Shown: in pieces, positions 12,815 to 41,569 of the stretch
Numbering within the stretch: the stretch's first letter is position 1
Layout of the letters: each line of letters starts with the position of its first letter
NCBI GenBank assembly: GCA_006954405.1
Contig: LVVQ01000001.1
Coordinates: forward strand, 557,161 to 621,160
Source: Candidatus Methanarcanum hacksteinii
GTDB taxonomy: Archaea; Thermoplasmatota; Thermoplasmata; Methanomassiliicoccales; Methanomethylophilaceae
Direction: 5' to 3'
Length of the DNA stretch: 64,000 nt
The notes under the pieces: model-generated
Database searches by the model: none
Told to the model about the DNA's origin: nothing
What the model saw: the letters and a program-made list of their open reading frames with translations, nothing else
Translations under genes and position numbers: made by a program

Positions 12815-13545
12815 GATATGCACTCTCCGTAACCCCTTTCTCTGATGTCCTTGAGTATGTCCATCGGACGACCCGTGCATCTGATGAGCCCTTCCTTGAG
12901 GACGAATGCCTTGTCGGCACCGATGTAGTCGAGGATCTGTCCAGTGTGTGTTATGACAAGTGAGGAGACATGTCTCTTCGAGTTAGAACCGCAATTCTCG
13001 CATTTGCCGTTGTTCTTGGTGTAGAGCAGGTCGTGTACCTTCTTTCCGATGAGATCGATGCTTTCGAGATCGACTCCGGACTCAGGTTCGTCCAGGAGTA
13101 CGAATTCAGGTTCCTGTGCCGTCAGTTGCAGGAGTTCGGATCTTTTGATCTCTCCGCCAGAGAAACCGACGTTCACATCCCTTGCAAGGAAGTTATCCAT
13201 CCTGAAATCGGTCGCATCAGGGACATCCTTTCCATTCGCCGTGGCCTTCACAAGGTCTCCGAGTTTCACTCCTACGACATTCGGTGGTCTTTGCATCATC
13301 ATGCCTATTCCGAGTTTAGCACGCTCATTCACAGGCATATCCGTGATGTCAATCCCTTCGAATATGATCTTTCCACTCGTCACTTTGCATGTTCCGTATC
13401 CCATCACCGCTGCGAGGAGCGTGGATTTGCCTGAACCGTTGGGACCGAAGAGCACACAGGTCTCCCCTTCTCCAACACTCAATGTGACGCCTTTGAGGAT
13501 CTCCCTTCCACCGGCTTCAACGTGAAGATCGACGATGTCTAACAT
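12790..13545 (-). CDS. sufC: Fe-S cluster assembly ATPase SufC
   Basis: GPNGSGKST Walker A, LSGGE signature and the SufC D-loop. Confidence 0.85.
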   Translation of the reverse strand: MLDIVDLHVEAGGREILKGVTLSVGEGETCVLFGPNGSGKSTLLAAVMGYGTCKVTSGKIIFEGIDITDMPVNERAKLGIGMMMQRPPNVVGVKLGDLVKATANGKDVPDATDFRMDNFLARDVNVGFSGGEIKRSELLQLTAQEPEFVLLDEPESGVDLESIDLIGKKVHDLLYTKNNGKCENCGSNSKRHVSSLVITHTGQILDYIGADKAFVLKEGLIRCTGRPMDILKDIRERGYGECISCRMVKMD

Positions 13546-13694
13546 TCTCTCACCTTGGTGGGGTCATACACGTTAATGTAATTAAAATATTCATAACGGC
13601 GTTAACTCACACCTCTCGATAGATGCGTCAAGCAATACCATCTGCGCACATCATTGCCGATTTGTTTATACGGCATCATTCATAACGTGTAGGC

Positions 13695-14267
13695 ATGAAG
13701 GTCGTTGCACTGAACGGGAGTCCACGTCTACTAGGGAACACATCCAATGCATTGAACGTGGTCCTTGATGAACTCAATAAGGAAGGTATCGATACCGAAT
13801 ACATCCAGGTCTATGAGGATCACATGAATCCATGTAACCATTGCAGTTCATGCGAGGTGCGCGGAGACGGGAGATGTGTCGCAGAGGACGACAATATGAA
13901 TCTCTACCTTGACAAGATGAAAGCGGCCGACGGGATAATATTGGCATCCCCAACATACTATGGATCATGTACGGCTCAATTGAAGATATTCCTGGAACGT
14001 GCTGGATTGGCATGCATGTTCGATAAGGATCGCCCACTCAGAGGAAAGGTAGGGGCGGCATTGGTCATCCAAGAACGCAATGGAGGGTACGCCGTCTATT
14101 CAGAATTGGTCAATTGGATGCTCAGCAATGAGATGACAGTAGTCGGTTCCAATCCATTGTGTGTGATCAACGCGAAGAACCCGTTCGACTATGAGAATGA
14201 TGAGAAAGGGATGAAAGCCCTGAAGATGATGTCCAAGAACATCATCTCAGAGCTAGAGAAAAGATGA
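13695..14267 (+). CDS. NADPH-dependent FMN reductase / iron-sulfur flavoprotein-like
   Basis: MKVVALNGSPR...ILASPTYYGS flavodoxin-like fold with a CxxC..C cluster. Confidence 0.6.
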   Translation: MKVVALNGSPRLLGNTSNALNVVLDELNKEGIDTEYIQVYEDHMNPCNHCSSCEVRGDGRCVAEDDNMNLYLDKMKAADGIILASPTYYGSCTAQLKIFLERAGLACMFDKDRPLRGKVGAALVIQERNGGYAVYSELVNWMLSNEMTVVGSNPLCVINAKNPFDYENDEKGMKALKMMSKNIISELEKR

Positions 14268-22933: not shown

Positions 22934-23086
22934 TATGTTAACATCATTAAGAGAGAAAGTTTTAAATATGCTCTTAATATACGCGCGTAATATAGTACAT
23001 GGATATATAATCCATCCATAAAACCCTTTATATCGGTTGAGGCGAATTATGTTCCATCGTCTTTTTGACAAGACGGAGGAATAGAA

Positions 23087-23725
23087 ATGAGCGCAGAAAT
23101 GGATGAACTCATCGACATTGTCGTAAAGGGTAAGATCAAAGAAGGAAAGGACGCAACACAGAGATGCCTCGATGCAGGACACGATGCAAAGGACATCATC
23201 TTCAACGGACTTTCAAAAGCAATGTCGATCGTCGGAGACAAGTACGCAGCAAAGCAGTACTTCCTTCCCCAGGTTCTTCTCTCGGCAAACACACTCTACA
23301 TGGGTCTCAACCTTGTTCTCCCTATGCTCACAGGAGCAGGCGGAGAGACAAAAGGTAAGGTCGTTCTTGCAGTCGTCGAGGGAGATGTCCACGACATTGG
23401 AAAGAACATCGTGAAAGCCATGCTTACCGGTCTCGGACTCACAATCTACGACTTGGGTAAGGATGTCCCGATCAAAGACATCGTCGAGAAGGCAAAGACA
23501 GAGGGAGCACAGATCATTGCAGAGTCCACACTCATGACACCTACACTCGCAGGTATGAAAGAGTGCGAGAAGATGCTCGCAGAGGAAGGACTCAAAGGAA
23601 AGATCAAGACAATGATCGGTGGTGGAGCAACCTCGAAAGAGTTCGCAGACCAGATTGGAGCAGACGGCTGGTCCTACGACGCAGTCGAGGCTTCACACGT
23701 TGCATCAGCATTCCTTGGGCTGTAA
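23087..23725 (+). CDS. Methyltransferase cognate corrinoid protein (B12-binding, MtaC/MtmC/MtbC-like)
   Basis: DVHDIGKN (DxHxxG) B12-binding motif, an N-terminal cap helix domain, and a GGAGG ribosome-binding site. Confidence 0.8.
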   Translation: MSAEMDELIDIVVKGKIKEGKDATQRCLDAGHDAKDIIFNGLSKAMSIVGDKYAAKQYFLPQVLLSANTLYMGLNLVLPMLTGAGGETKGKVVLAVVEGDVHDIGKNIVKAMLTGLGLTIYDLGKDVPIKDIVEKAKTEGAQIIAESTLMTPTLAGMKECEKMLAEEGLKGKIKTMIGGGATSKEFADQIGADGWSYDAVEASHVASAFLGL

Positions 23726-23899: not shown

Positions 23900-26110
23900 A
23901 TGAAACAGTCGGAATTCGATCAATGGGTCCAGGATTGGATCAAAAGAGAGAAGGAAGCAGGCAGGAAATGCTTCGAAGTTAAGAAATCCGGTAACAATTA
24001 CTACGTCTATTTCCAGTCGACAAGATATAATGCCGAGACGAAGAAGAGAGAGAAAGTATCCGGATATCTGGGCAAATTGGTCGAAGGAGAGGGACTGATC
24101 GAACCCGACACATACTCTGAGGATGATGAGAAGTCATCTGTTGCAAGGTATGGTCTCGGAATCGACACCGGAGGTACGTTCACGGATGCGGTCATCGTCG
24201 ACCTTGACGATTATTCCGTCGTGGTCAAGAAGAAATCGCCCACGACGCATCACGATCTGTCGATAGGATTGTACAATGCAGTGGATGCGGTCTTCAGATC
24301 TACGGATATCAGACCATCGGACATATCGCTCGTAGGAATATCCACTACATTGGCCACGAATTCAATCCTGGAAGGCAGTGGCGGAGAGGTAGGACTCATC
24401 CTCATAGGATGGAATCCGATGGAACCTGTCAATTTCGGTGAGAAGAAGCAGGTGATCATCAAGGGCGGTTGCGATAGCAAGGGCAGACAGATAGCCTCCA
24501 TGAGTAAGGATGAGGTCATCGCAGCATTGGACAGCATGAAGGGAGAGGTGGATGCGATCGCTATCTCGGGATTGTTCGCCAGTATGAATCCGTCACAGGA
24601 GAAGAAGGTGAAGGAATTGGCAGCATCCTATACAGGGCTTCCAACCGTTGCAGGACATGAGCTCTCTGCCGTTCTCGGTATCGATACAAGGGCAGAGACG
24701 GCTGTGTTGAATGCTAAACTGATCCCTGTCGTCAGTAAGTTCTTCGATGATGTGGAGGCGACATTCAGGAAGAAGGGCATAGAAGCACCGATAATGGCAT
24801 ACAAGGGAGACGGTTCCGTCATGACATTGGAACAGGCAAGGTTGTATCCTGTCGAGACCATACTTTCCGGACCCGCAGCCAGTTCCATGGGCGGAAAGAT
24901 ACTTTCAGGCCTCGAGGACTGTGTGATAGTGGATATCGGAGGCACATCCACAGATATCGCGATAATGGATTCTGGATTCCCTCAGATCCAATTCAACGGT
25001 GCATCGGTTGGAAAATGGAGGACCCGTGTGAAGGCTGTCGATATGTACACGGTCGCATTGGGCGGGGATTCGAGGATAAGAGTGGATGGACACAGCATCA
25101 CGATAGGTCCTGAGAGGGTACAACCATTATGCAGATTGGCCGAGAAGCACCCTGATGTGGTCGGCAAGATCATGCACTCCAACGTCTACGACTACTACGA
25201 GGCGGTCGATGATTATAACCTTCAGGTACTCACCGAGAAGGAACAGAGGGTGTACGACTCGACAATCGGAAAAGGACCTCTTTCGAACATGGAAGTGAAG
25301 AATGAGGTGGAAGGCCTCTGGATGATCGATGATGAATTATCCTCATTGGTCACGAAGGGTGCGATGATCCTGTCATCACTCACGCCTACGGATATAATGG
25401 TCTACGACGGTTCATTTAAATTGGGATCGAAGGACGGAGCGAGAGCAGGTGTCCATGCGGTGGGCGAGAAGCTCGGTATGACCGAGAGGCAAGCATCACG
25501 CATAGTCTTCGATGAGGTGAAGGAGAAGATCGCAGAGGCGGTCATGAGCAAGATGCTCGACGATCAGATGCTGGAATGGAGGGACAGAGGTTCAGAGCTC
25601 CTGCTGAGAAGGATGTTGACATTGCATCACGGCGATACCGCGATGAATATGAAACCAAGCTTCAGCATACCTGTCATCGGAGTGGGAGCACCATCTAAAT
25701 ACATGATGTCCGACCTCAGCGAGAGATTGGGTGCCGAGGTGGTCTTCCCCGATAACAACGATGTCGGTAATGCAGTAGGTGCTGTGTGCAGTAAGATAAG
25801 CGAATCGCTGTCAGGGAACGTGATCCCTACGCCCGACTACAAATTCTTGACGACAGTCCCGTTCATAGGCTCATCATACCATGTCCACTTGGATACGGCG
25901 ATATCATCCGCCAAACGCAGTCTGGAGTCATATCTCGAGAACAAGCTGAAGGCGATGGGTGCTAGGAATGTTATGACATCGTCCAAGATAAAGACATATA
26001 TGGCTTCTGAAGGAGGCATAGGGGATTACACCGATGAGGGATTATCGGGTACTGTGAACTATGTTGAGATAATATCAAGAGCGATAGGAGATCCACCTGA
26101 AAGGGATTGA
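23900..26110 (+). CDS. Hydantoinase/oxoprolinase (HyuA) family ASKHA ATPase with a unique ~90-aa N-terminal extension
   Basis: GLGIDTGGTFTDAVIVD hydantoinase_A N-terminal signature and a second DIGGTSTD ATPase motif; 736 aa. Confidence 0.7.
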   Translation: MKQSEFDQWVQDWIKREKEAGRKCFEVKKSGNNYYVYFQSTRYNAETKKREKVSGYLGKLVEGEGLIEPDTYSEDDEKSSVARYGLGIDTGGTFTDAVIVDLDDYSVVVKKKSPTTHHDLSIGLYNAVDAVFRSTDIRPSDISLVGISTTLATNSILEGSGGEVGLILIGWNPMEPVNFGEKKQVIIKGGCDSKGRQIASMSKDEVIAALDSMKGEVDAIAISGLFASMNPSQEKKVKELAASYTGLPTVAGHELSAVLGIDTRAETAVLNAKLIPVVSKFFDDVEATFRKKGIEAPIMAYKGDGSVMTLEQARLYPVETILSGPAASSMGGKILSGLEDCVIVDIGGTSTDIAIMDSGFPQIQFNGASVGKWRTRVKAVDMYTVALGGDSRIRVDGHSITIGPERVQPLCRLAEKHPDVVGKIMHSNVYDYYEAVDDYNLQVLTEKEQRVYDSTIGKGPLSNMEVKNEVEGLWMIDDELSSLVTKGAMILSSLTPTDIMVYDGSFKLGSKDGARAGVHAVGEKLGMTERQASRIVFDEVKEKIAEAVMSKMLDDQMLEWRDRGSELLLRRMLTLHHGDTAMNMKPSFSIPVIGVGAPSKYMMSDLSERLGAEVVFPDNNDVGNAVGAVCSKISESLSGNVIPTPDYKFLTTVPFIGSSYHVHLDTAISSAKRSLESYLENKLKAMGARNVMTSSKIKTYMASEGGIGDYTDEGLSGTVNYVEIISRAIGDPPERD

Positions 26111-26204: not shown

Positions 26205-27236
26205 ATGGCAATGACACCAAGAGAGAGAGTACTCGCAGCAATGAAACAGGAGAAGCTGGACAGACCCCCAGTCGCAGTCTTCACACAGTCAGCAACCATC
26301 GACCAGATGGATGCATTAAACATCTACTGGCCCGAAGCACACTCAGATGCAAAGATGATGTGCGAGCTCGGAGCAGCACAGGCAACCGTCTTCGGATTCG
26401 AAGCAGTCAGGTCCTCATTCTGTCTCACAGCAGAAGCAGAGGCACTCGGATGCAAAGTGGATCCTGGAAAGAAAGACAGGACACCTATGCTCAAAGCACA
26501 CCCCTTCAAATTCGACCCCATGTCCGGTGAATATGACGAGCCTAACCTCATGTCCCCTGAGGAGTTCCTCAAGACAGGAAGGCCCGCAGTCATTCTCGAG
26601 GCAACAAAACTCATGAAAGAGAAATACGGAAAGGACTACGCAGTCATCGCAGGTAACACTGGACCTTTCACACTCGCAGGTCACCTCGTTTCAACAGAGA
26701 ACCTCGTTTTCGGAATCATGATGGAGCCCGACAAGGTCAAAGAGTGGGTAGATGCAGTCAACCCCATCGTTAAAGCATACTGCCAGGCACTTTCAGACGC
26801 AGGAGCAGACATCATCCAGATGTCAGAGCCTTCAGCATCAACAGACCTTCTTTCACCCGACATGTTCACAGAGTATGCAGGATCATACGTCAAGGCATCA
26901 CTCGCAGCAACAAAGGGAGCAGACACAGTTCTTCACATCTGTGGAGACACAGCACCTATCCTCGACCACATGATCGAGACAGGCGTAACAGGTCTCTCAA
27001 TCGAGGAGAAAGTCGACTCCGCAGAGGCAGTCAAGATCGTCGGTGGACGTGCAGCACTCGTCGGAAACGTCGGTGTCGTCTCACCCTTGCTCCAGGGAAC
27101 ACCTGAGGACTGTGCAGCAGCAGGAAAGAGGATCGCAGAGGCAGGATTCAACGTAATCTCACCTGGATGCGGACTTTCAGCTCTTATCCCCGGTGCAAAC
27201 CTCAAAGCACTCGTCGACTCTGTCAAATCACTCTGA
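26205..27236 (+). CDS. Methylcobamide:CoM methyltransferase (URO-D family, MtaA/MtbA-like)
   Basis: 343 aa URO-D-like protein (MAMTPRERVLAAMKQEKLDRPPVAVF...) with conserved His and Cys near the C-terminus. Confidence 0.75.
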   Translation: MAMTPRERVLAAMKQEKLDRPPVAVFTQSATIDQMDALNIYWPEAHSDAKMMCELGAAQATVFGFEAVRSSFCLTAEAEALGCKVDPGKKDRTPMLKAHPFKFDPMSGEYDEPNLMSPEEFLKTGRPAVILEATKLMKEKYGKDYAVIAGNTGPFTLAGHLVSTENLVFGIMMEPDKVKEWVDAVNPIVKAYCQALSDAGADIIQMSEPSASTDLLSPDMFTEYAGSYVKASLAATKGADTVLHICGDTAPILDHMIETGVTGLSIEEKVDSAEAVKIVGGRAALVGNVGVVSPLLQGTPEDCAAAGKRIAEAGFNVISPGCGLSALIPGANLKALVDSVKSL

Positions 27237-29072: not shown

Positions 29073-29771
29073 ATGTCGGACAACAGCGTATTCGCAGAGA
29101 AGTTCAAGACGATTCTCAAGCTCAGACACGAGCCTGTGGCTGTAAAATTGGTAAAGAAGGATGAGGAGTATCCAGCAGGTTATGACGCACCTTCCGAGCA
29201 GATGACTCACTGTCAAGCCGTGATGGGAGCGAAGAATGGAAATTCATACAAGATGCCTGCAGCTATGCAGTCATGCAACGTCGGTGCATCCACTTTGGGA
29301 ATGATCCCGAAGCCTGAGAAGGTCATCAGTGGCGAGTTCCATGCGAATATAGGTATACACGAGTCGCCTGATGCGGCCAAAGCGATGATCGCCGCTGCCG
29401 TTGACGTTCCCTTCGAGACACAGGGCGAGGTCGTATGCCCACTGAAGGATGCGAATTTCATACCTGATGTTGTAGTCTTCGTCGACATACCCGAGAGGAT
29501 CTATTGGTTCGAGGCATTCCTCACACGTAAGGTCGGAGGGCGCGTAACATACACCACAGCACCGTTCCAATGCGCATGTGAGGATGTCACTGCGATACCC
29601 ATCGTATCAGGCAAGCCGAACATCTCGATCGGTTGTTTCGGTTGCAGGAAGAGGACGGATATGAAGGCTGACGAGATGGCTATCGGTGTTCCCTACAGCT
29701 TGATCGCAGAGATGGTATCCGATCTCGACATCTACAAGGACGGCGTCTTCCTCAAAGCAAAGAGGGACTGA
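29073..29771 (+). CDS. DUF169-family protein
   Basis: 232 aa with conserved Cys pattern (HCQAV, CNVG, CFGC). Confidence 0.5.
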   Translation: MSDNSVFAEKFKTILKLRHEPVAVKLVKKDEEYPAGYDAPSEQMTHCQAVMGAKNGNSYKMPAAMQSCNVGASTLGMIPKPEKVISGEFHANIGIHESPDAAKAMIAAAVDVPFETQGEVVCPLKDANFIPDVVVFVDIPERIYWFEAFLTRKVGGRVTYTTAPFQCACEDVTAIPIVSGKPNISIGCFGCRKRTDMKADEMAIGVPYSLIAEMVSDLDIYKDGVFLKAKRD

Positions 29772-30373: not shown

Positions 30374-31597
30374 ATGGCTGGGATCATACTCAATCGTTGT
30401 CCGAAGGTGTCTGCAGATACAGGGATAAGGGTCGTTCCGCCAGAAGAGACGCTCAAGAGAGTGATCCCCCTCTTGGATAAGGCAGGGATGGAGCCGCTAG
30501 AGGATATCACCGATAAGGACAACATAGGCATTCCAGTCTATTCCGTGTACAGGAAGAAGACTGCGAAGGGAACGTTCGGTAATTACAATGGTAAAGGCGC
30601 CACACCCGAACAGGCGATGGCATCAGCCGCGATGGAAGCCATCGAAAGATACAGTGCTGAATTACATGATGACGATGAGATAGTACTTGGTACGATACAA
30701 CAGGTAAGGGACAACGGTCCGATGATAGAACCGGATGATCTGATCCTTCCTGCGCGTGTTATGTACAATCTCGAAGCGGCAGATATTGCATGGACAACAG
30801 GATATGACCTCATACAAGGCCAAGAGGTATGGGTCCCGGCATGTGCAGTGTACTATCCATACTATCCCGATGGGGATCTGCAATTGTTCAGATTCCACAC
30901 GAACGGCATAGCATCAGGGAATACCATCGAAGAAGCGATACTGCATGGTATGTTTGAAGTCATAGAGAGGGATGCATGGTCGATAGCGGAAGCATTCGAC
31001 AGGACGAATGCCGACATAGTGATAGATGATGAGGATTCCGTGCCTGGAAAACTCCTCAAACAGTTCAGAGATAATGGAGTGGAGATACACCTCAAGGATC
31101 TGACCAGTGATCTTGGCATACCTACGATCGGAGCATCATCCGATGATGTTTCCACGAAGGATCCCGAGCTTTTGAACATAGGCGTAGGGACACATCTCGA
31201 TCCTGTCATCGCTGCAACCAGAGCATTGACAGAGGTAGCACAGAGCAGGACCACTCACAAACATGGATTGAAGGTCAATGCGAATCTTGTCAAAGTGACC
31301 AAAGAGATGGGCTATGAGAGGATCAAGGCTGTGAACAGACTCTGGTATTCCGACAACGACAAGAAGATAAGATTGTCGGAGATGCAGAATCTCTCAACAC
31401 CCTATGTGAGGGATGATATCGAAGTGGTACTTGGAAGCCTGGTGGAGCATGGATTCGAACGTGCAGTGGTAGCGGACCTTACAAGAGATGATGTGAACAT
31501 ACCTACAGTAAGGATGATCATTCCCGGAATGGAGGTATCCACGATGGATTCGGAACGCGAAGGCCCAAGACTCTGGGGAAGATGGCCAAAACGGTGA
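30374..31597 (+). CDS. ycaO: YcaO-domain protein (candidate McrA thioamidation enzyme)
   Basis: EAIERYSA and EVIERDAWS YcaO ATP-binding motifs; immediately upstream of mcrB. Confidence 0.8.
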   Translation: MAGIILNRCPKVSADTGIRVVPPEETLKRVIPLLDKAGMEPLEDITDKDNIGIPVYSVYRKKTAKGTFGNYNGKGATPEQAMASAAMEAIERYSAELHDDDEIVLGTIQQVRDNGPMIEPDDLILPARVMYNLEAADIAWTTGYDLIQGQEVWVPACAVYYPYYPDGDLQLFRFHTNGIASGNTIEEAILHGMFEVIERDAWSIAEAFDRTNADIVIDDEDSVPGKLLKQFRDNGVEIHLKDLTSDLGIPTIGASSDDVSTKDPELLNIGVGTHLDPVIAATRALTEVAQSRTTHKHGLKVNANLVKVTKEMGYERIKAVNRLWYSDNDKKIRLSEMQNLSTPYVRDDIEVVLGSLVEHGFERAVVADLTRDDVNIPTVRMIIPGMEVSTMDSEREGPRLWGRWPKR

Positions 31598-31709
31598 AAG
31601 AACGAGTAATAGGTTCAATAAAAAACAACCATTAAATATCAAAAAGCAGGCGGTTTTTGTCGATTCAAACTTCATTTATAAATGGCCAAAAAATGGTCTT
31701 TTTTATCTT

Positions 31710-31726
31710 AACAATCGATAATTGTT
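31710..31726. promoter_or_regulatory. Perfect 17-nt palindrome AACAATCGATAATTGTT upstream of the mcr TATA box
   Basis: Self-complementary sequence centred about 26 nt upstream of the TATA box at 31741. Confidence 0.35.
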
Positions 31727-31740
31727 AGAAATGCTTTACT

Positions 31741-31748
31741 TTATATGC
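31741..31748 (+). promoter_or_regulatory. mcr operon TATA box (TTATATGC) with an A-rich BRE-like flank
   Basis: The position implies a transcript start near 31770 and a 5'UTR of about 60 nt ending in GGAGGT, 5 nt before the mcrB ATG. Confidence 0.45.
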
Positions 31749-31829
31749 TAAAATGGCATACGGAAGAACTACAAGGGGAGGCAAAAAGGTTAGCCCTTTT
31801 GCTGATTTATGAATAAACGGAGGTATGAA

Positions 31830-34392: not shown

Positions 34393-36051
34393 ATGGCAGC
34401 AAAAGAAAGGTTGTTTATTGACGCCTGTAAGAAGAAATTCAAAGAGGACCCAACCAGCATCGAGACAAAGTTCTACTGCTACGGCGGATGGAAACAGTCA
34501 AAGAGAAAGGTCGAGTTCGTAGAAGCAGCAAACAAGATCGCAAAGCAGCGTGGCATACCCATGATGAACCAGGACATCGGAGTTCCGCTCGGACAGAGGT
34601 CCTGGATGCCCTACCAGCTCTCACACACAGATATCTTCGTAGAGCCGGATGATCTTCACTGCATCAACAATGCTGCAATTCAGCAGGCATGGGACGACAT
34701 CAGGAGGACAGTCCTCGTTGGTCTCGACTCACCCCACAACACAATCGAGAGAAGGCTTGGAAAAGAAGTCACACCTGAGACAATCAACGAGTACCTCGAG
34801 GCAGTTAACCACACAATGCCCGGAGGAGCTGTTGTTCAGGAACACATGGCTGAGATCAACCCTGCACTCGCATACGACTCATACGTCAAGGTCTTCACCG
34901 GAAACGACGAGCTCGCAGACGAGATCGACAAGAGGTTCCTCATCGATATCAACAAGCAGTTCTCAAAGGACCACGCAAAACAGCTCAAAGCAGCAATTGG
35001 AAACACACTCATGCAGGCAGTCCGTGTCCCGACAATCGTCGGACGTGTCATGGATGGAGGTACAATCTCGAGGCACGCAGCTATGCAGATCTCGATGGCT
35101 TTCATCACATCATACAAACTCGCAGCAGGAGAGGCAGCAATTGCCGACTTCGCATACTCTGCAAAACACCAGTGTATCAACATGGGTACCATGATGCCCG
35201 CAAGGCGTGCAAGAGGACCCAACGAGCCTGGAGGAATTCCCTTCGGATTCATGGCAGATATCGCACAGTCAGACCGTGTACACCCGGACGACCCCGGACG
35301 TGCAGCTCTTGAAGCAGTCGCACTTGGTGCAATCGTCTTCGACCAGATCTACCTCGGTGGATACATGTCTGGTGGAGTAGGATTCACACAGTACGCATCA
35401 GCAGCATACACTGACAACATCCTTGAGGATTACACATACTATGCAATCGACTACATCAAGGACAAGTTCGGTGGCTTCGGAAAACTCAACCCCGAAGACT
35501 TCGACAAGCTGATCCAGCTCGGAGATGACATCAACTCATACGCACTCGAGTCCTACGAGAAGTACCCCGCAATCATGGAGGCACACTTCGGTGGATCACA
35601 GAGGGCAACAGTTGCAGCAGCAGCAACCGGTATCGCAGGTTCAATGGCTACCGGTGTCGCAGACTGCGGTCTCAACCTCTGGTACCTCTCAATGCTCCAG
35701 CACAAGGAGAGGACAGGAAGGCTCGGATTCTACGGATACGACCTTCAGGATCAGTGTGGTTCAGCCAACTCATTCGCATACAGGTCCGATGAGGGTCTGC
35801 CCATGGAATTGAGGGGTCCGAACTACCCCAACTACGCAATGAACGTCGGTCACCTCTCTGGATACACAGGTATCCCGAAGGCAGCTCACGCAGCACGCGG
35901 AGACGCATTCACAGCCAACCCATTCATCCGTATCGCATTCGCAGACCCGAGCCTTGTGTTCGACTTCGCGAACGTCACAAAAGAGATCGGACGTGGCGGA
36001 CTTCGTGAATTCAAGCCTGCAGGTGAGAGGACCGCAATCATTAAGGCATAA
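34393..36051 (+). CDS. mcrA: Methyl-coenzyme M reductase alpha subunit
   Basis: 552 aa. Contains the [12 protein letters not shown] region (the thioglycine and didehydroaspartate site) and a Gly-rich C-terminal region. Confidence 0.9.
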
Positions 36052-36062
36052 GCGTGAAACAC

Positions 36063-36341
36063 ATGCAACTGGGTGAGATCTACAAATACATGCCAACATC
36101 GACTGTTGGGAAAGTGGTGGATATTCGTGAGAAGGACGGTAAGACTTGGGCTTTGCTCGATTTCACTGGCCTTTGGTACGATGTTTCAAAGCTCACTCCT
36201 GCGGATGTAAGTGAATATAAGGAGATCTCGTTCAAATACAGAGAGAGGTCCTTCGATTCCAGCGTTAGGTCCGTTGAGGAACTGGCGAAGGAGATTCAGG
36301 ACGTCGACATATCTGACTTTACACCCAGTGGCGGCGGATGA
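36063..36341 (+). CDS. Small hypothetical protein immediately after mcrA (92 aa)
   Basis: ATG 12 nt after the mcrA stop. The track start at 36054 is GTG. Confidence 0.4.
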   Translation: MQLGEIYKYMPTSTVGKVVDIREKDGKTWALLDFTGLWYDVSKLTPADVSEYKEISFKYRERSFDSSVRSVEELAKEIQDVDISDFTPSGGG

Positions 36342-36360
36342 ACGCTTAACCAAACCAAAC

Positions 36361-36420
36361 CTTTTACACTTTTTACCTTTTTTTTACTTTTGTAAAAACG
36401 AACGTGTTTTTCAACATTCT
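36361..36420 (+). terminator. Oligo-T rich region (probable mcr operon terminator)
   Basis: CTTTTACACTTTTTACCTTTTTTTTACTTTTG: repeated T5-T8 runs typical of archaeal termination. Confidence 0.45.
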
Positions 36421-36506
36421 ATGTTTTACCACCCACACTTATTTTTACAATGAACTGTTTATTACGAAGTCGTCGCAATATGCGATAAAATAAGGGGAGG
36501 GATTTG

Positions 36507-36743
36507 ATGGCAAAGACATCGTTCAATCTCAAGGATCCGGCGACTTTCGTTGGTTTCATCTTGGGACTTCTTGCAACAGCGCTCTTCAACGTGTTGGGAT
36601 TGATTATCCTTATCGTTGTTGTGCTGTTCTATTATTTCACCAACAAGAAGAACGTTGTGCCCGCATTGATCGGTGCACTCGTCGGTATTGTTATCGGCAT
36701 CGTGATCAACATCATAGTCGGTGGCGTTATCGCGTTATTCTGA
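36507..36743 (+). CDS. Small membrane protein (2 TM)
   Basis: Two hydrophobic helices; a GGGAGGG ribosome-binding site at 36494. Confidence 0.4.
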   Translation: MAKTSFNLKDPATFVGFILGLLATALFNVLGLIILIVVVLFYYFTNKKNVVPALIGALVGIVIGIVINIIVGGVIALF

Positions 36744-36796
36744 TGAAATAAAAGGCCAAGAAACAAACATCTTAATTTTTTCTACACCTATGCCAC

Positions 36797-37057
36797 ATGA
36801 CAGCAATCGATCGAGATGATGATATGTTTAGAAGGAAGAGTAAAGTGAACGTGAGGAGGAAATCTCCAGTGAAATCTATCAGAGATTTCGAGAAAGATCT
36901 TCTTAGGAATAACAAAGGTGGCGGAAAGGTCACCAATTGTCATATAGATAGGGATGAATTCACTATCACGATCGATATCGATGATGCTAAATTCGAGATG
37001 ACTTATGGGCAGGCAGCTCTGATCCTCGTGGCGTTAAAAGGCATCTACAATAAATGA
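36797..37057 (+). CDS. Hypothetical small basic protein (86 aa)
   Basis: ORF only. Confidence 0.3.
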   Translation: MTAIDRDDDMFRRKSKVNVRRKSPVKSIRDFEKDLLRNNKGGGKVTNCHIDRDEFTITIDIDDAKFEMTYGQAALILVALKGIYNK

Positions 37058-37112
37058 TCGAGTGCGGGTATTGATAAATATTAATTCAATATTGACAGGG
37101 ATTGTGAACTGA

Positions 37113-37667
37113 ATGATGGCTGAGAATGATTATCTGATCGGAAAGGATGTCATCACCAAGGATGCGTACAAGTTAGGGGAGATACAAGATTACTCTTGTG
37201 AGACTGTATCCTGGAGCATCATGGGTCTTAGGGTGAAGAGTGGCAATAATGTGGCGCCGTTATTGAACATCGGTAGCGGCAAATCCATGATTTTGCTTCA
37301 GCCAGATGATTTCACGATAAATGATGTTGTGCTTTTGGATGACACAATAGAGGAAGTCAGATCTAAGATCACTGCGGATAGGTCGGATTACCTTTCGATC
37401 AATTCGATGATCGGTATGAGTGTATATGCCTCTGACGGATTGTTGGTCGGAACGATTGATTCCATCGAAGTAGATTATTCCAAATGGAAATTGATCTCGA
37501 TGCAAGTAAAGTTGGACAAGGCTGCACATCAAGCTCTAGGTGTCAAGAAGATCCTATTCGGTAAGAAGATATCGGGGATCCTCATGTCGCAGATAGACGG
37601 CATAAGGGATTCCGTGATATTATCCCTTGATACTGACAGTATAAGGGGTCAGATGATCATCCTTTGA
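37113..37667 (+). CDS. PRC-barrel domain protein (two tandem PRC-like repeats)
   Basis: Repeated (I/V)xGKDV...LGEIxD and SxxIGMSVYASDGLLVGTIDSIEVD modules. Confidence 0.5.
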   Translation: MMAENDYLIGKDVITKDAYKLGEIQDYSCETVSWSIMGLRVKSGNNVAPLLNIGSGKSMILLQPDDFTINDVVLLDDTIEEVRSKITADRSDYLSINSMIGMSVYASDGLLVGTIDSIEVDYSKWKLISMQVKLDKAAHQALGVKKILFGKKISGILMSQIDGIRDSVILSLDTDSIRGQMIIL

Positions 37668-38211
37668 CCGTATTGAATGCTACGAGGATGGATGCGTATT
37701 TTCCATTATCTTCCATCCCGTGCCATTTCCTAATCATCTTGTCACATGTAGGCGCAGGACTGCATGATATGACATCGAAGCATCCGTTGCTCTCATTCAA
37801 CTCAGGGAATGGAACAGGCGGCATGATGAATGATTCGCTACCTCCTGGTGGTATCTCAACATAGGGAAATATGACGAAACCATCCGACAACCAGAGTACG
37901 TCGTCTCTGTTCCTGTATTCCGCAGATGTCTCGGGGAAGACTTCGGTACCTAGGAGTTTCCCATCACTTGAAAGCAGGATTACAGTGGGTTTTGGCGGTG
38001 GCCTGAACCTGGGATCCTTGACGATACAGATGACTTTCTCCCTTTTCAGAGCTTCCATATAACCTAGATTACAAACTGTGATTCCTCCGCAGGCCTTCAC
38101 GGTATTCTCCTCGGCCTGTACCTCTGCTTTGATCTTGTCATCGAGGTAGAAGGCGTCGATGACACCTCTGAGTCCTTTCAGCAGTTTGATATGCTGGTCA
38201 TCTTCACACAT
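37657..38211 (-). CDS. Hypothetical Cys-containing protein (184 aa)
   Basis: ATG at 38211 (track start 38217 is GTG). The motifs VKACGGITVCNLGY and CSPAPTCDKM are not recognised. Confidence 0.4.
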   Translation of the reverse strand: MCEDDQHIKLLKGLRGVIDAFYLDDKIKAEVQAEENTVKACGGITVCNLGYMEALKREKVICIVKDPRFRPPPKPTVILLSSDGKLLGTEVFPETSAEYRNRDDVLWLSDGFVIFPYVEIPPGGSESFIMPPVPFPELNESNGCFDVISCSPAPTCDKMIRKWHGMEDNGKYASILVAFNTVKG

Positions 38212-38234
38212 GTTCACTCGTATGTTTACTTGTT

Positions 38235-39128
38235 CTAAAATACCTTATCCTCGGAAAGTTTCGTTACGATAGGCCCTTTGGACGTCAGTATCTCCTTTAT
38301 GTCGACGACACCGATGGCTGCGATCGCTTTCCCATCGAGATCGATCGGAGTGACGACGACTTTGATACCTTTATATGGTCCACTTGTAGCGATCTTCCTT
38401 ATGCACGTTTTTGTGCGGATGACATCCTCTAGGACCTCTCCGGTGTATGCATTGTCGATGACGACCCCATTCTCGATTCTCACACCAAGGTCATCCCTGC
38501 TCTTCGCACAGACGGGAAGTCCACCTACCAATTCGTGTATCGCGAACGCGAGTGACAATATCTCTCCGGTGGATGATCTCGATGATAGGATGTCCTTGAT
38601 GCCTTTCTGTAATCTTAGGCCGCCCATCGTATTTAATGCGGCCGATATCGCACCGCATTCCGCGAGTTCGTAGGAATCTGCCGTACCGATGATCACCGCA
38701 TCATCGTTCCTTACCGCGAATATGTCTCTGATGATCTTCTCGGTATCCTTGTCCACGGGGTAATCTGAACCAGGGAAGATGAGGCGGTTGTTGGAACATA
38801 TCAATGTCGTAGCACCCTTCGCACCCGATATGATTGCCGAATCCCTCTCCTCACAACCGAATGAGATCCTTCTGGAGGCATGTCTGATCAGTACGGCACA
38901 GTTGTACATGCCGATGGTGAGGTCATGTAGGACGATCGGTTTCGCATCCAGGAATATCAATCCTCTGTATTCATCCCCTTCCTTTGTCAGTGTGATCCCA
39001 CTCTTTCCGATCTCTATGTATTTGTTCTCGAGGAGGATATTCAGGATCGTCCTTGTGCTGCCTTCTCCGATGCCAAGTACCGATGATAGTTTCTTCCTTC
39101 CGATCGGTTCATCGACATCCATGGACAT
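38235..39128 (-). CDS. Putative regulator: N-terminal winged-helix domain plus C-terminal uncharacterised domains
   Basis: GRKKLSSVLGIGEGSTRTILNILLENKYIEIGKSGITLTKEG resembles a wHTH. The track start at 39260 is TTG; the first plausible ATGs are at 39128 and 39122. Confidence 0.4.
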   Translation of the reverse strand: MSMDVDEPIGRKKLSSVLGIGEGSTRTILNILLENKYIEIGKSGITLTKEGDEYRGLIFLDAKPIVLHDLTIGMYNCAVLIRHASRRISFGCEERDSAIISGAKGATTLICSNNRLIFPGSDYPVDKDTEKIIRDIFAVRNDDAVIIGTADSYELAECGAISAALNTMGGLRLQKGIKDILSSRSSTGEILSLAFAIHELVGGLPVCAKSRDDLGVRIENGVVIDNAYTGEVLEDVIRTKTCIRKIATSGPYKGIKVVVTPIDLDGKAIAAIGVVDIKEILTSKGPIVTKLSEDKVF

Positions 39129-39329
39129 GATCGATTTCCATATGTGATAATCATTGAATTTCGGGGCAGGCCCACAGATCCTGACGTTGGATGATGGATG
39201 CATCATACATCCAGTGTTCTGTTCGGATATAACAATTCTGGTGTTGTCAGTCGTAGCCAATATTAACGCGACTAATCTTTACACACGATAAAGGCACGCT
39301 TTATCTATTTAAAAGTGATAACGCTGTTT

Positions 39330-40949
39330 ATGTCAAATGAATCTGTCGAACTTTTAAAATTAGAGAATGTCTCGAAAGTTTATGACGGAAGGACTGTGCT
39401 CAACAATGTCAGTGCTACTTTGTCAAGCGGTAAGATCCTCGGTCTTATCGGAAAGAGCGCAGCCGGAAAAAGTGTTCTGATCCATATGATCAGAGGTTCT
39501 GATGATTACGCACCCACTTCAGGCAGGGTGCTCTATCATGTCAACATATGCCCCAAGTGTGGAAACCTTGACCTTCCGTATTCAGGTCACGTATGTACGA
39601 AATGCGGTGCTGAACCGAAGACAGAATGGGTGGACTACTGGGCACTCCCCGAACGCGATCCTGTCAGACAGGAGCTCAAACAACGTATCTCCATCATGTT
39701 GCAGAGGACGTTCGCTCTCTTCGGAGACAGTACGGTGATGGAGAATATATTCGAAGCCATCGGAGATAAGGTCTCTGAGAAGGAGAAGATCGAGAAGACC
39801 ATCGAGCTCTTGGAATTCGTCAACATGACTCACAGGATAACGCACATCGCGCGTGACCTTTCAGGAGGAGAGAAACAGCGTGTCGTCATGGCAAGACAGC
39901 TTGCGAAGAACCCGTTGATATTCCTCGCTGACGAACCAACAGGTACTCTCGATCCGTATACCGCCAACATCGTTCACGAGAGGTTGGTTAAATATGTGCG
40001 CGAGAACAACATCTGTATGGTATTCGCATCACATTGGCCGGAGGCCATCAACAAGATGGCGGATGAGGCGATATGGCTCGACTCAGGTAACGTCGTCATG
40101 AGTGGCGATCCTAAGACCGTCACATCCAAATTCATGGAGGAATACCACTTCGAGAGAAGGAAGGATACCAAGCTCGGAGAGCCTCTCATCGTTCTCGAGA
40201 ACGTGAAGAAACATTACTTCTCCGTCGTGAGAGGTGTCGTGAAGGCTGTGGATGGAGTATCATTCACCATAAGGGAGAATGAGATATTCGCGATGGTCGG
40301 TATCTCTGGTGCAGGTAAGACCACGACATCCCGTATGATCGCAGGTATGACTCCAGTAACATCTGGTGTCGTCAAGATCAAGATCGGTGACGATTGGGTG
40401 GATATGAGCGAATCAGGATTCATGGGCAAGGGAAGGGCGACACCATACATCGGTGTCCTCCACCAGGAATACACATTGTATCCGTTCGATACCATCCTCA
40501 AGAACCTCACAGTCTGCATAGGGATGACGATGCCTGCCGAGATCGCCAAAGTGAAGGCGATACAGGTCCTTCAGAGCGTAGGATTCCCAAGGAAGGATAT
40601 CGAGAAGGTCCTGTACTCATACCCCGATGCATTGTCTGTCGGTGAGCAACAGAGGGTCGCATTCGCACAGGTCCTCATCAAAGAACCCCGTATCGTCATC
40701 TTGGATGAACCTACGGGAACGATGGATCCGATAACAAAGGTCACTGTCGCCAAAGCCGTGTTGAATGCGAGGGACAACCTCGGTGAAACGTTCGTCGTCG
40801 TCAGTCACGACATGGATTTCATCCTCAATTGTTGCGACCGTGCCGTTCTCTTCAAGAACGGAAAGGTCATCGAGGAAGGAAAGCCGGAAGAGATCGTCAA
40901 CGGTTTCGACAAGATAGAAAAAGAATTGGAAAATGGTGAACAACAGTGA
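39330..40949 (+). CDS. atwA: Methyl-coenzyme M reductase system component A2 (tandem ABC ATPase)
   Basis: Two Walker A sites ([16 protein letters not shown]), two LSGGE/LSVGE signatures and a CPKCG...CTKCG zinc ribbon insert in domain 1. Confidence 0.85.
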
Positions 40950-41569
40950 AACAGAAGATTGGAAGGCATCTCAGTTTCGTTGAGTGCCGTGAATCCATGG
41001 GGATGGGTCAGGGCGGAGGCTTGGCGCAGAGAGCGACCATCTCGGAAAGCGGCAGGGATGTTGTCGCCATCGCCATGGGCCCTGGAAGAAGACACATCAC
41101 GAAACCTGTGTGCGAGATCACGTACGCACTCAGGGAAGAAGGTATCGACACGTCGGTCTTGGTCCTTAACGCGGGTGCAGGTGTGCCTGCGGATGCAGAG
41201 GATGTTTCCCATGGACAGTGTATGGGATTGGATCCGATCGAAGTGGAGAGGATACAACAATTCAAAGTGGCATTGATACACCTCGGGAATGTCCGCAGCC
41301 ACATAATATGGAAAGCGAGACTCATCCTCAGGAATGTCGACATCCCTGCGATAGTGGTATGTCAATGTCCTGTGGATTTCGAGGATTTCGCCGCCATCGG
41401 TGTGAAGACGAAGGATGTCATGCCACCCGATGATAAGGTGAACACCAAAGGGACCATAATAGAGATTGTCAACGGAGTCATAAGAGGGATCTCATGCCCT
41501 CAGGATAAGTTGGATGAGATCGTTTCGAAGGTACAGAGCATGCTCCCTAAACAGGAGGAGTCGAGATGA
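40946..41569 (+). CDS. mcrC: Methyl-coenzyme M reductase protein C
   Basis: [18 protein letters not shown]...[15 protein letters not shown] matches the McrC consensus. The GTG start overlaps the atwA stop (GTGA). Confidence 0.85.

Follow-up and report, generated by a model that had tools for sequence, protein, structure and literature searches.

A candidate autoregulated corrinoid-type transcription factor and its palindromic site in the gene block between mcrA and atwA of Candidatus Methanarcanum hacksteinii

In the genome of Candidatus Methanarcanum hacksteinii, a gut methanogen of the Methanomethylophilaceae (order Methanomassiliicoccales), a block of six open reading frames (ORF1 to ORF6) lies between mcrA (34393-36051), a structural gene of methyl-coenzyme M reductase (MCR), and atwA, the first gene of the MCR activation cluster. 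We analysed this block within a stretch of 64 kb of DNA, referred to here as the window. Exact matches to all six proteins are recorded under this species name. The block is preceded by the genes for an Lrp/AsnC regulator and YcaO (marker 1) and by mcrB, mcrD, mcrG and mcrA, and it is followed by atwA (A2), mcrC, mmp3, mmp6, mmp5, mmp15, mmp17 and mmp7. The locus raises the question of whether genes in such a position are new factors for the maturation, assembly or regulation of MCR, as the original prediction for this DNA had proposed. That all six ORFs lie between mcrA and atwA, with the coordinates and strands collected in Table 1, was confirmed from the sequence and the list of open reading frames. 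The answer that we favour, to which we assign a probability of about 0.62, is that the block is a mosaic, which would comprise a DUF2098 subunit of the activation machinery (ORF1), an autoregulated corrinoid-type factor (ORF6) with its palindromic site P1, an operon partner of that factor (ORF5), and lineage-restricted insertions. The observations behind this answer are homologies, synteny, the conservation and placement of the motif, and its co-occurrence with particular genes.

ORF6 is most likely an autoregulated, corrinoid-type transcription factor, judging from its domains and its surroundings. The profile search that had been suggested for this protein was run and identified a winged helix-turn-helix (wHTH) domain, a DUF4443 domain and a C-terminal DUF2111 domain. 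The first two domains, of which the winged helix is of the CggR/PH0730 type, gave Pfam matches to PF21715 (E = 4e-9), PF22167 (E = 3e-8) and PF14544 (E = 4e-28). Residues 49-205 match the crystal structure 2P8T (E = 3.6e-13), that of PH0730 from Pyrococcus horikoshii, a protein that has been counted among the predicted archaeal transcription factors (PMC6316755). The match to DUF2111 (PF09884) reached 106.8 bits against a cut-off of 27, and this domain is predicted to adopt a PAS/GAF-like sensor fold. No NCBIfam model, including the methan_mark models, matched ORF6 or its DUF2111 part at E <= 1. In the literature that we searched, PH0730 appeared only in a list of predicted transcription-factor families, with no target site or effector, and neither DUF4443 nor DUF2111 was mentioned. 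Across the order, the helix motif LGIGEGS(T/V/I)RT is near-invariant in the ORF6 homologues, and this near-invariant recognition-helix region matches the invariant arms of the P1 operator. The gene had been drawn from a TTG at 39260, giving 341 aa. Its real start is almost certainly the ATG at 39206 or 39203, because the 19-residue extension is not conserved (0.13, compared with ~0.6 for the rest of the protein) and the homologues measure 314-323 aa. The divergent orientation of ORF6 and atwA was seen as described; the promoter region that they share had been given as 39129-39329, and the true intergenic region is ~39207-39329.

The palindrome P1, with the consensus ATGGATG-N7-CATCCAT, was found by aligning the ORF6-atwA intergenic regions of related loci at their ends, and a position weight matrix (PWM) was built from 37 sites outside the window. 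Only two strong matches were present in the 64-kb window, one over the ORF6 start codons and one far upstream of the mcr operon (Table 1), while shuffled versions of the window scored 20.5 at most. The related loci, 1.34 Mb in total, contained 67 sites with a score of at least 18, of which 48 were at the 5' end of ORF6, 16 were near mcrB and 3 were elsewhere; after shuffling of these loci, no site reached that score. Of 55 loci, 48 have P1 in the interval from the TATA box to the ATG of ORF6, and TGGATG occurred in 43 of 52 ORF6-atwA intergenic regions, where 9 were expected. Since the TATA box lies only ~25 nt from the ATG, the ORF6 transcript should be leaderless and P1 should cover its start site. 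A site over the transcription start is the usual place for an archaeal repressor.

The second site in the window stands before the gene at 23087-23725, which encodes a corrinoid protein containing the two B12-binding domains; URO-D/MtaA-like and RACo/RamA-like genes come after it. The same arrangement of P1, TATA box and corrinoid gene was observed in a related locus (L007 in our numbering), where it accounts for one of the three sites found elsewhere, and in four metagenome loci (L130, L181, L191 and L211). In 16 of 64 loci, mainly in Methanomassiliicoccaceae-type genomes, P1 also occurs upstream of mcrB at a distance of no more than 220 nt, and at both the mcrB and the corrinoid promoters it is followed by 6-7 nt and then by the TATA box. 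A weaker P1-like site, ATGGATGCATTAAACATCTAC (26307-26327, score 16.5), lies ~100 nt inside the MtaA-like gene at 26205-27236; its score is within the range of the shuffles, and it may be due to chance. The corrinoid cluster also contains genes for a 736-aa hydantoinase/oxoprolinase-like protein and, beside the RamA-like activase, a DUF169 protein (23900-26110 and 29073-29771).

Public metagenome contigs were then scanned for the exact pattern TGGATRNATWATCCATCCA, which returned 120 loci (L092-L211). A perfect palindrome, TGGATGGAT(A/T)ATCCATCCA, was present in 78 of them, where one in eight was expected. Thirteen of the metagenome sites lay just upstream of stand-alone wHTH-DUF4443 genes whose products are 32-39% identical to ORF6, and in 56 of the 120 loci, genes with a cobalamin theme were transcribed away from the site. 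These genes encode BtuF-type binding proteins, FecCD permeases (E = 3e-81), ABC ATPases, CbiE (above its cut-off), CobN (E ~0), CobZ (E = 2e-41), CobD-like proteins, corrinoid proteins and NrdD (E = 2e-137), the B12-independent anaerobic ribonucleotide reductase. The site overlaps the start at the transporter genes, and it precedes the TATA box at the corrinoid and mcrB genes. In three metagenome loci, a regulator gene and a gene for an ECF-S-like membrane protein diverge from a single site. This pattern is what would be expected of a family of autoregulated transcription factors governing a cobalamin-type regulon. The commonest neighbour of the perfect palindrome encodes a membrane protein of six helices and ~180-200 aa (for example in L095, L099, L124, L175, L185 and L207), which may be an unrecognised component of corrinoid or cobalt uptake. 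The P1-linked NrdD proteins of L101, L147, L161 and L204 have an unusual architecture, in which an N-terminal ArsR-like helix-turn-helix and an ATP-cone are fused to the enzyme.

From these data, we infer that ORF6 binds P1, and with it the sign of regulation and the nature of the effector. ORF6 would be a one-component factor, presumably a dimer, whose PH0730-type winged helix sits on P1 and whose DUF4443 and PAS/GAF-like DUF2111 domains have an effector or a dimerisation function. At the promoter of ORF6 itself, binding would block RNA polymerase and cause autorepression of the ORF6-ORF5 operon, which in most relatives would be an ORF6-DUF6951-ORF5 operon; ORF5 would belong to the P1 regulon through its membership in this operon. 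Where P1 abuts the upstream edge of the TFB-recognition element and TATA box (BRE/TATA), as at the corrinoid operon and at mcrB of the sister family, binding could lead to activation or to competition with transcription factor B (TFB). As effector, a corrinoid or a signal closely tied to it is the most likely, because in other archaea P1 flanks stand-alone wHTH-DUF4443 genes, cobalamin genes and NrdD genes. A more specific proposal, which we put forward tentatively and regard as rather unlikely in its full form, is that the PH0730/DUF4443 family is the cobamide-responsive transcription factor that has long been sought in archaea, and that ORF6 is its form in the obligately methyl-reducing Methanomassiliicoccales. 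ORF6 would have acquired DUF2111 from the MCR-activation cluster and would couple corrinoid status, possibly also MCR-activation status, to the corrinoid methyltransferase genes and, in the Methanomassiliicoccaceae, to mcrBDGA; ORF5, with a distant nitroreductase/BluB/CblC-like fold and conserved cysteines, would be a new protein that handles a tetrapyrrole (cobamide or F430).

The first gene of the block, ORF1, can be assigned to a known system. A soluble protein of 92 aa had been noted directly after mcrA, and this was borne out: its ATG lies 11 nt past the mcrA stop (an alternative GTG at 36054 would give 95 aa), and the protein is acidic, with a pI of 4.6. It matches Pfam DUF2098 (PF09871) with 72.9 bits (cut-off 25, E = 2.7e-20) over 92 of 94 model positions. 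The earlier view that none of these genes has an assigned function consequently fails for ORF1 and also for ORF6 (DUF4443, DUF2111), both of which belong to named families. A profile built from 22 Methanomassiliicoccales homologues of ORF1 matches the PDB entries 8S7X_L, 8S7V_L and 9H1L with E = 4e-8, while ORF1 as a single sequence gives E ~0.3 against the chain of the solved complex. These entries represent the MCR activation complex of Methanococcus maripaludis, in which DUF2098 is chain L; the protein co-purified with tagged McrC and is held by the McrC loop C138-I168 (PMC12176620). The McrC of the window aligns with 8S7V_I (E = 6e-74), and the DUF2098-binding loop is conserved. ORF1 and the M. 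maripaludis protein thus belong to the same Pfam family, and the profile match covers the N-terminal SH3-like core; they differ in that pairwise similarity is weak and in that the gene here lies directly after mcrA, in the mcr operon. The DUF2098 proteins of the Methanomassiliicoccales have an invariant C-terminal tail, (T/M)PSGGG or PSGT, which is outside the part that aligns with the M. maripaludis protein.

In 59 of 61 loci, the DUF2098 gene starts between -4 and +22 nt from the mcrA stop. A run of at least five T residues was present in 49 of 61 related loci within the 120 nt that follow the DUF2098 stop, the tract being placed after DUF2098 and not after mcrA. Tightly coupled to mcrA and followed by the T-rich tract, ORF1 thus behaves like a fifth gene in the mcr operon. 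We suggest that ORF1 supplies the DUF2098 subunit to the machinery for MCR activation, and that it would be co-transcribed with mcrBDGA and would dock on the flexible McrC loop. Neither the placement of ORF1 nor its link to MCR is new in kind: DUF2098 was listed as the methanogen-specific COG4014 in 2007 (PMC1852104), was recognised in 2011 as a marker whose phylogenetic profile fits the methanogens perfectly (PMC3226654), and was pointed out beside mcrA in Methanomassiliicoccales in 2014 (PMC4153887). The gene mcrC (40946-41569) stands outside the mcr operon and directly follows atwA with a 4-nt overlap, so that the operon would be mcrBDGA-DUF2098 and McrC would be made with the activation genes.

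ORF5 had been described as a minus-strand protein with two cysteine motifs. The reading frame exists, whereas both cysteines of its CGGITVC motif are unconserved; the cysteines that are kept are C64, C146, C152 and, in most homologues, C158. We found 357 homologues, all of them unannotated and without a Pfam domain, and all of the named ones come from Methanomassiliicoccales. They are highly conserved, with CIVKDPRFRPPP and SCSPAPT among the invariant motifs. ORF5 is probably part of the P1-controlled operon, because it begins only 23 nt beyond the ORF6 stop and is preceded by a weak ribosome-binding site. The AlphaFold model has a pLDDT of 88.8. ORF5 matched no family in Pfam or NCBIfam, its profile found no sequence relative in the PDB, and a Foldseek search against the PDB returned nothing. 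Any likeness to the nitroreductase/FMN-oxidoreductase superfamily (BluB, iodotyrosine deiodinase, CblC and the cobalamin domain of reductive dehalogenase) is at best that of a distant fold, in contrast to which ORF5 has neither a sequence-family match nor a Foldseek match, and a role in cofactor handling is only a lead. In most relatives (L009 and L020-L080, for example L025 at ~13160-13850), a cysteine-rich DUF6951 protein (PF22263) of ~110 aa, sometimes duplicated, is encoded between the ORF6 and ORF5 homologues. This gene has been lost in the window and its nearest relatives, and no solved structural relative of DUF6951 was found.

To compare the block across the order, we used 80 loci anchored on McrA, one per species, with McrA 72-99% identical; identity between the window and its close relatives is 95-99%. 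ORF1 followed mcrA in 78 of the 80 loci, ORF5 was present in 67 and ORF6 in 58, and many of the loci without ORF6 are truncated contigs. ORF6 was on the minus strand in every locus, as was ORF5 whenever it lay between mcrA and atwA, and in 51 loci, as in the window, ORF6 and atwA were directly divergent, with 97-433 nt between them. The plus-strand ORFs in the middle of the block are far more restricted. ORF2, described before as a mini-protein with two transmembrane segments, is indeed a 78/79-aa ORF with two hydrophobic segments and a pI of 9.7; tblastn matches with 56-60% identity were confined to the five closest species (L001-L005), and it appears to be a fast-evolving small membrane protein. 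ORF3, the basic protein of 86 aa in the earlier description (pI 9.4), had no tblastn match in any of the 80 loci, and positions 36746-37111 had no nucleotide match in the nearest species. It does recur within the species, with a 90%-identity cluster that contains only Candidatus Methanarcanum hacksteinii or unnamed close relatives. Neither ORF2 nor ORF3 matched a Pfam or NCBIfam family above threshold. ORF4 had been called a tandem PRC-barrel protein; it has one Pfam PRC match (residues 93-133, E = 2.6e-7), and its residues 10-135 match 8qzo_A, a PRC-barrel protein of 182 aa (E = 0.003), so that the domain stands and the second repeat is plausible. It occupies the same position and strand in ~21 loci, which belong to part of the Methanomethylophilaceae.

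The per-ORF distribution over the 80 loci therefore indicates that the block is not one functional unit but a conserved core (DUF2098 and the ORF6-(DUF6951)-ORF5 cassette) with variable filler. Synteny is thus kept across the order for ORF1, ORF5 and ORF6, and it is limited to the genus for ORF2, to the species for ORF3 and to part of a family for ORF4. These last three appear to be lineage-restricted insertions, and with this narrow distribution and nothing linking them to Mcr, the suggestion that they are Mcr factors finds no support here. A sceptic could extend this view to the whole neighbourhood, regarding it as a permissive slot that has collected unrelated genes, none of which, except ORF1, acts on Mcr. 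The highly variable content of the slot among relatives, which includes YcaO, transporters, a cytidylate-kinase-like gene and orphan ORFs, agrees with such an explanation, as does the narrow distribution of ORF2, ORF3 and ORF4. PRC-barrel proteins, moreover, have been tied to archaeal cell division in the case of CdpB1-3 of Haloferax (bioRxiv 10.1101/2023.03.28.534520), with which ORF4 shares the PRC-barrel domain and from which it differs as a 184-aa protein with probably two repeats. However, the ORF6-(DUF6951)-ORF5 cassette and its placing against atwA persist throughout the order, and P1 is also found at the mcrB promoters of 16 of 64 loci. Of the alternatives, this one survives best, and we still consider it doubtful. 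With respect to ycaO, the McrA-glycine thioamidation gene, we noted two alternative positions in the order: in the window it lies at 30374-31597, upstream of mcrB and after the Lrp/AsnC regulator, and in L027, L035, L039, L041, L045, L049, L052, L054 and L056 it is a minus-strand gene within the block. A search for repeats gave nothing relevant.

Table 1. Features of the block between mcrA and atwA and of the related promoter regions (positions in the window).
Feature	Position	Strand	Basis or remark
P1 ATGGATGCATCATACATCCAG, candidate operator over ORF6 start codons	39194-39214		PWM score 27.4
P1 site ATGGATATATAATCCATCCAT	22999-23019		PWM score 29.6, best in window; 6 nt upstream of TATA 23026-23036
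ORF6 TATA-like box AATTGTTATATCC	39225-39237	-	Sequence; ~24 nt upstream of start codon, leaderless geometry
ORF6, predicted transcription factor, 322/323 aa	38235-39206	-	Pfam, PH0730 structure match
ORF6 domain wHTH	38961-39149	-	
ORF6 domain DUF4443	38628-38915	-	
ORF6 domain DUF2111	38298-38540	-	
ORF5, 184-aa order-specific protein, second gene of ORF6 operon	37657-38211	-	Conserved Cys64, Cys146, Cys152
ORF1, DUF2098 protein, 92 aa	36063-36341	+	Pfam; behaves as fifth gene of mcrBDGA operon
T-rich stretch, likely archaeal terminator of mcrBDGA-DUF2098 transcript	36360-36392	+	Read from sequence
P2 ATTAACGCGACTAAT, TTAAC(G/A) element	39262-39276		~25-35 nt upstream of atwA TATA
atwA TATA-like box TTTATCTATTTAAAA; atwA ATG 39330	39300-39314	+	Sequence
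P2-like palindrome TTAACAAT-CGATA-ATTGTTAG	31708-31728		Just upstream of mcrB TATA (31739-31748)
ORF2, 78 aa, two hydrophobic segments, genus-limited	36507-36743	+	Hydropathy, tblastn
ORF3, 86-aa basic orphan ORF, species-limited	36797-37057	+	tblastn, nucleotide match
ORF4, 184-aa PRC-barrel protein, probably two repeats	37113-37667	+	Pfam PRC

The original prediction saw in the block candidates for new factors that mature, assemble or regulate Mcr and in ORF6, as one example, a regulator of the divergent atwA-mcrC-mmp operon acting through the shared promoter region. Part of this agrees with our data: ORF1 is indeed a partner in the activation complex, if an already known one, ORF6 looks like a regulator of the ligand-sensing type and stands directly divergent to atwA in the window and in 51 related loci, a conserved, operator-like palindrome is present in the region that the two genes share, and in other methanogens stand-alone DUF2111 genes occur inside mmp operons. 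However, the P1 palindrome is anchored to the ORF6 promoter, its distance to the ORF6 start being fixed while its distance to atwA varies with the length of the intergenic region, and atwA has an element of its own at a fixed distance, P2. The atwA start is most likely the ATG at 39330; the TIGR03269 match starts at residue 14 of the GTG-started ORF, and in relatives a TTTATAT-type box is found at the same distance from atwA, ~27-35 nt before the ATG. Among the 52 regions between ORF6 and atwA, 28 contained TTAACG and 24 contained TTAACA, where 1.9 and 1.6, respectively, were expected; the element is often part of TTAAC-N4-GTTAA, and P2 lies 71-73 nt from the atwA ATG in ten regions read by eye and 55-60 nt from it in five others. 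Since P1 is found elsewhere at corrinoid and cobalamin genes, as well as at the mcrB promoter of the sister family, it points to a corrinoid-type regulon that touches methanogenesis genes and not to a dedicated regulator of atwA-mmp. From its distance of 70-100 nt, an effect of P1 on atwA is still conceivable. Together with the narrow distribution of ORF2, ORF3 and ORF4, these observations lead us to regard the proposal of a block of Mcr factors with a dedicated atwA regulator as quite unlikely. A P2-like element was also observed near the corrinoid gene (22937-22951). In addition, an element GCAAGGGGA(A/G)C is conserved ~30 nt downstream of the mcrB TATA box in L058-L076 and reads ACAAGGGGAGG at ~31775-31790 of the window, which hints at a conserved feature in the 5' leader of mcr mRNA.

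The distribution of DUF2111 bears on a further alternative. This family is small, with 77 representative clusters at E <= 1e-3 among 1.8 billion proteins, and its members are mostly free-standing proteins of ~125 aa. The reverse domain order, DUF2111-wHTH-DUF4443, exists in one protein (P0244 in our numbering) and implies an independent tie between DUF2111 and the wHTH-DUF4443 modules. In 4 of 9 contexts, a stand-alone DUF2111 gene lies between mmp6 and mmp5 (L081, L083/84, L086 and L089), the contexts being three Methanobacteriales-like contigs and one of Methanofastidiosa. In the window, DUF2111 occurs as a domain within ORF6, outside the mmp operon. Among the other contexts, metagenome loci L085 (2458-3273) and L088 (7560-8378) carry tandem DUF2111 genes by the genes for ThiS and ribose-5-phosphate isomerase, flanked by two-component genes. 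Repetition unexpected for a small sensor-like domain was seen in P0242 (241 aa), a tandem-DUF2111 protein, and in the giant proteins P0255 (2321 aa) and P0309 (1036 aa), which contain 18 and 6 DUF2111-like stretches, respectively. An equation of DUF2111 with COG4029 was rejected, since COG4029 corresponds to marker 6 in the literature, and the Mmp6 of the window is DUF2102, a different family; judging from the gene order in Gao & Gupta, DUF2111 may be COG4048/MMP0311.

Given these contexts, ORF6 might act at the protein level, for example by presenting DUF2111 to the activation machinery, while another factor, such as a PH0730-like paralogue or a global regulator, binds P1. DUF2111 is the best-conserved part of ORF6 within the order (0.78), it is free-standing in the mmp operon of some methanogens, P1 in metagenomes goes with regulators that lack DUF2111, and seven ORF6 promoters are without P1. 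On the other hand, ORF6 has an intact wHTH with a near-invariant recognition-helix motif, and the presence of P1 at 48 of 55 ORF6 promoters and at the 13 loci of distant members is the signature of family-wide autoregulation. We therefore judge a different binder of P1 to be distinctly improbable. As regards the structure of the site itself, a sigma-70 promoter scan, which is not meaningful for an archaeon, gave one useful output, a hairpin at 39195-39213. That P1 works as a hairpin at the start of the ORF6 mRNA, where it would control translation or stability, is very improbable and was rejected on the geometry of P1, TATA box and ATG. The palindrome of the window does overlap the start codons and was flagged as a stem-loop, but in most relatives the ATG directly follows the palindrome with the TATA box ~25 nt upstream, leaving most of P1 untranscribed, at the mcrB and corrinoid promoters P1 is upstream of the TATA box, and an Rfam scan of 35900-39500 matched no family.

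Several points weigh against ORF6 as the autoregulated factor that reads P1 in a corrinoid-type regulon. The PWM was trained on ORF6-proximal sites, which makes the count of sites at ORF6 partly circular; the mcrB, corrinoid and metagenome sites are independent of it. The ORF6 promoters without P1 (7 of 55) have an unchanged recognition helix, which is the same everywhere. No P1 is present upstream of the window's own mcrB, where the best PWM score is -6.0. Five of the nine stand-alone DUF2111 contexts lie outside mmp operons (L085, L087, L088, L090 and L091), comprising the two tandem pairs by ThiS and RpiA, one by BirA/BioY and two with unrelated neighbours. BtuF-type proteins also carry siderophores or haem, which weakens the cobalamin argument, and the six-helix membrane protein shows only sub-threshold similarity to ECF-S components, with no NCBIfam match. 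All promoter assignments were read from sequence, and a stand-alone PH0730-like paralogue located outside the visible 64 kb could be the real binder of P1.

If ORF6 has the role proposed here, what is new is the pairing of the wHTH-DUF4443(-DUF2111) family with P1, together with the reach of P1 to corrinoid methyltransferase promoters and to the mcr promoters of the sister family. Methane formation in the gut and rumen methanogens of the Methanomassiliicoccales depends entirely on corrinoid methyltransferases, and P1 before corrinoid-protein genes and, in one family, before the mcr operon would offer a route by which cofactor supply sets methane output. The wHTH-DUF4443 family, a defined 21-bp site and a set of genes are now on offer for testing. 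In addition, DUF2098 is confirmed as hard-wired into the mcr operon throughout the Methanomassiliicoccales, and DUF2111 emerges as a previously unrecognised occasional member of the MCR-activation gene cluster.

Among known proteins, PH0730 is the closest in design to ORF6, with the wHTH and DUF4443 in the same order, and differs from it in that ORF6 has an extra C-terminal DUF2111. The combination of a wHTH with a GAF-like effector domain recalls the IclR-type one-component regulators, which is an analogy of design and not of family membership: the Pfam and NCBIfam models for IclR did not match ORF6, and ORF6 has an additional DUF4443 between the two parts. For the logic of the site, the nearest parallels are TrmBL1/Tgr and SurR of the Thermococcales, where the effect depends on the position of the site relative to BRE/TATA. 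Likewise, one palindrome is found here downstream of the TATA box, at ORF6 and the transporter genes, or immediately upstream of it, at mcrB and the corrinoid protein gene; in contrast, the protein families are unrelated, and the sign of regulation at P1 is deduced. Archaea are largely without the B12 riboswitches used by bacteria, and a 'CBL-box' for a hypothetical archaeal B12 regulator was reportedly proposed by Rodionov et al. in 2003 (J Biol Chem). In the literature searched, no cobalamin-sensing regulator or target site was assigned to the wHTH-DUF4443 family. The genes linked to P1 are the same set as that of the bacterial cobalamin riboswitch regulon, matched gene by gene, whereas P1 is not an RNA but a DNA palindrome next to the gene for a protein regulator.

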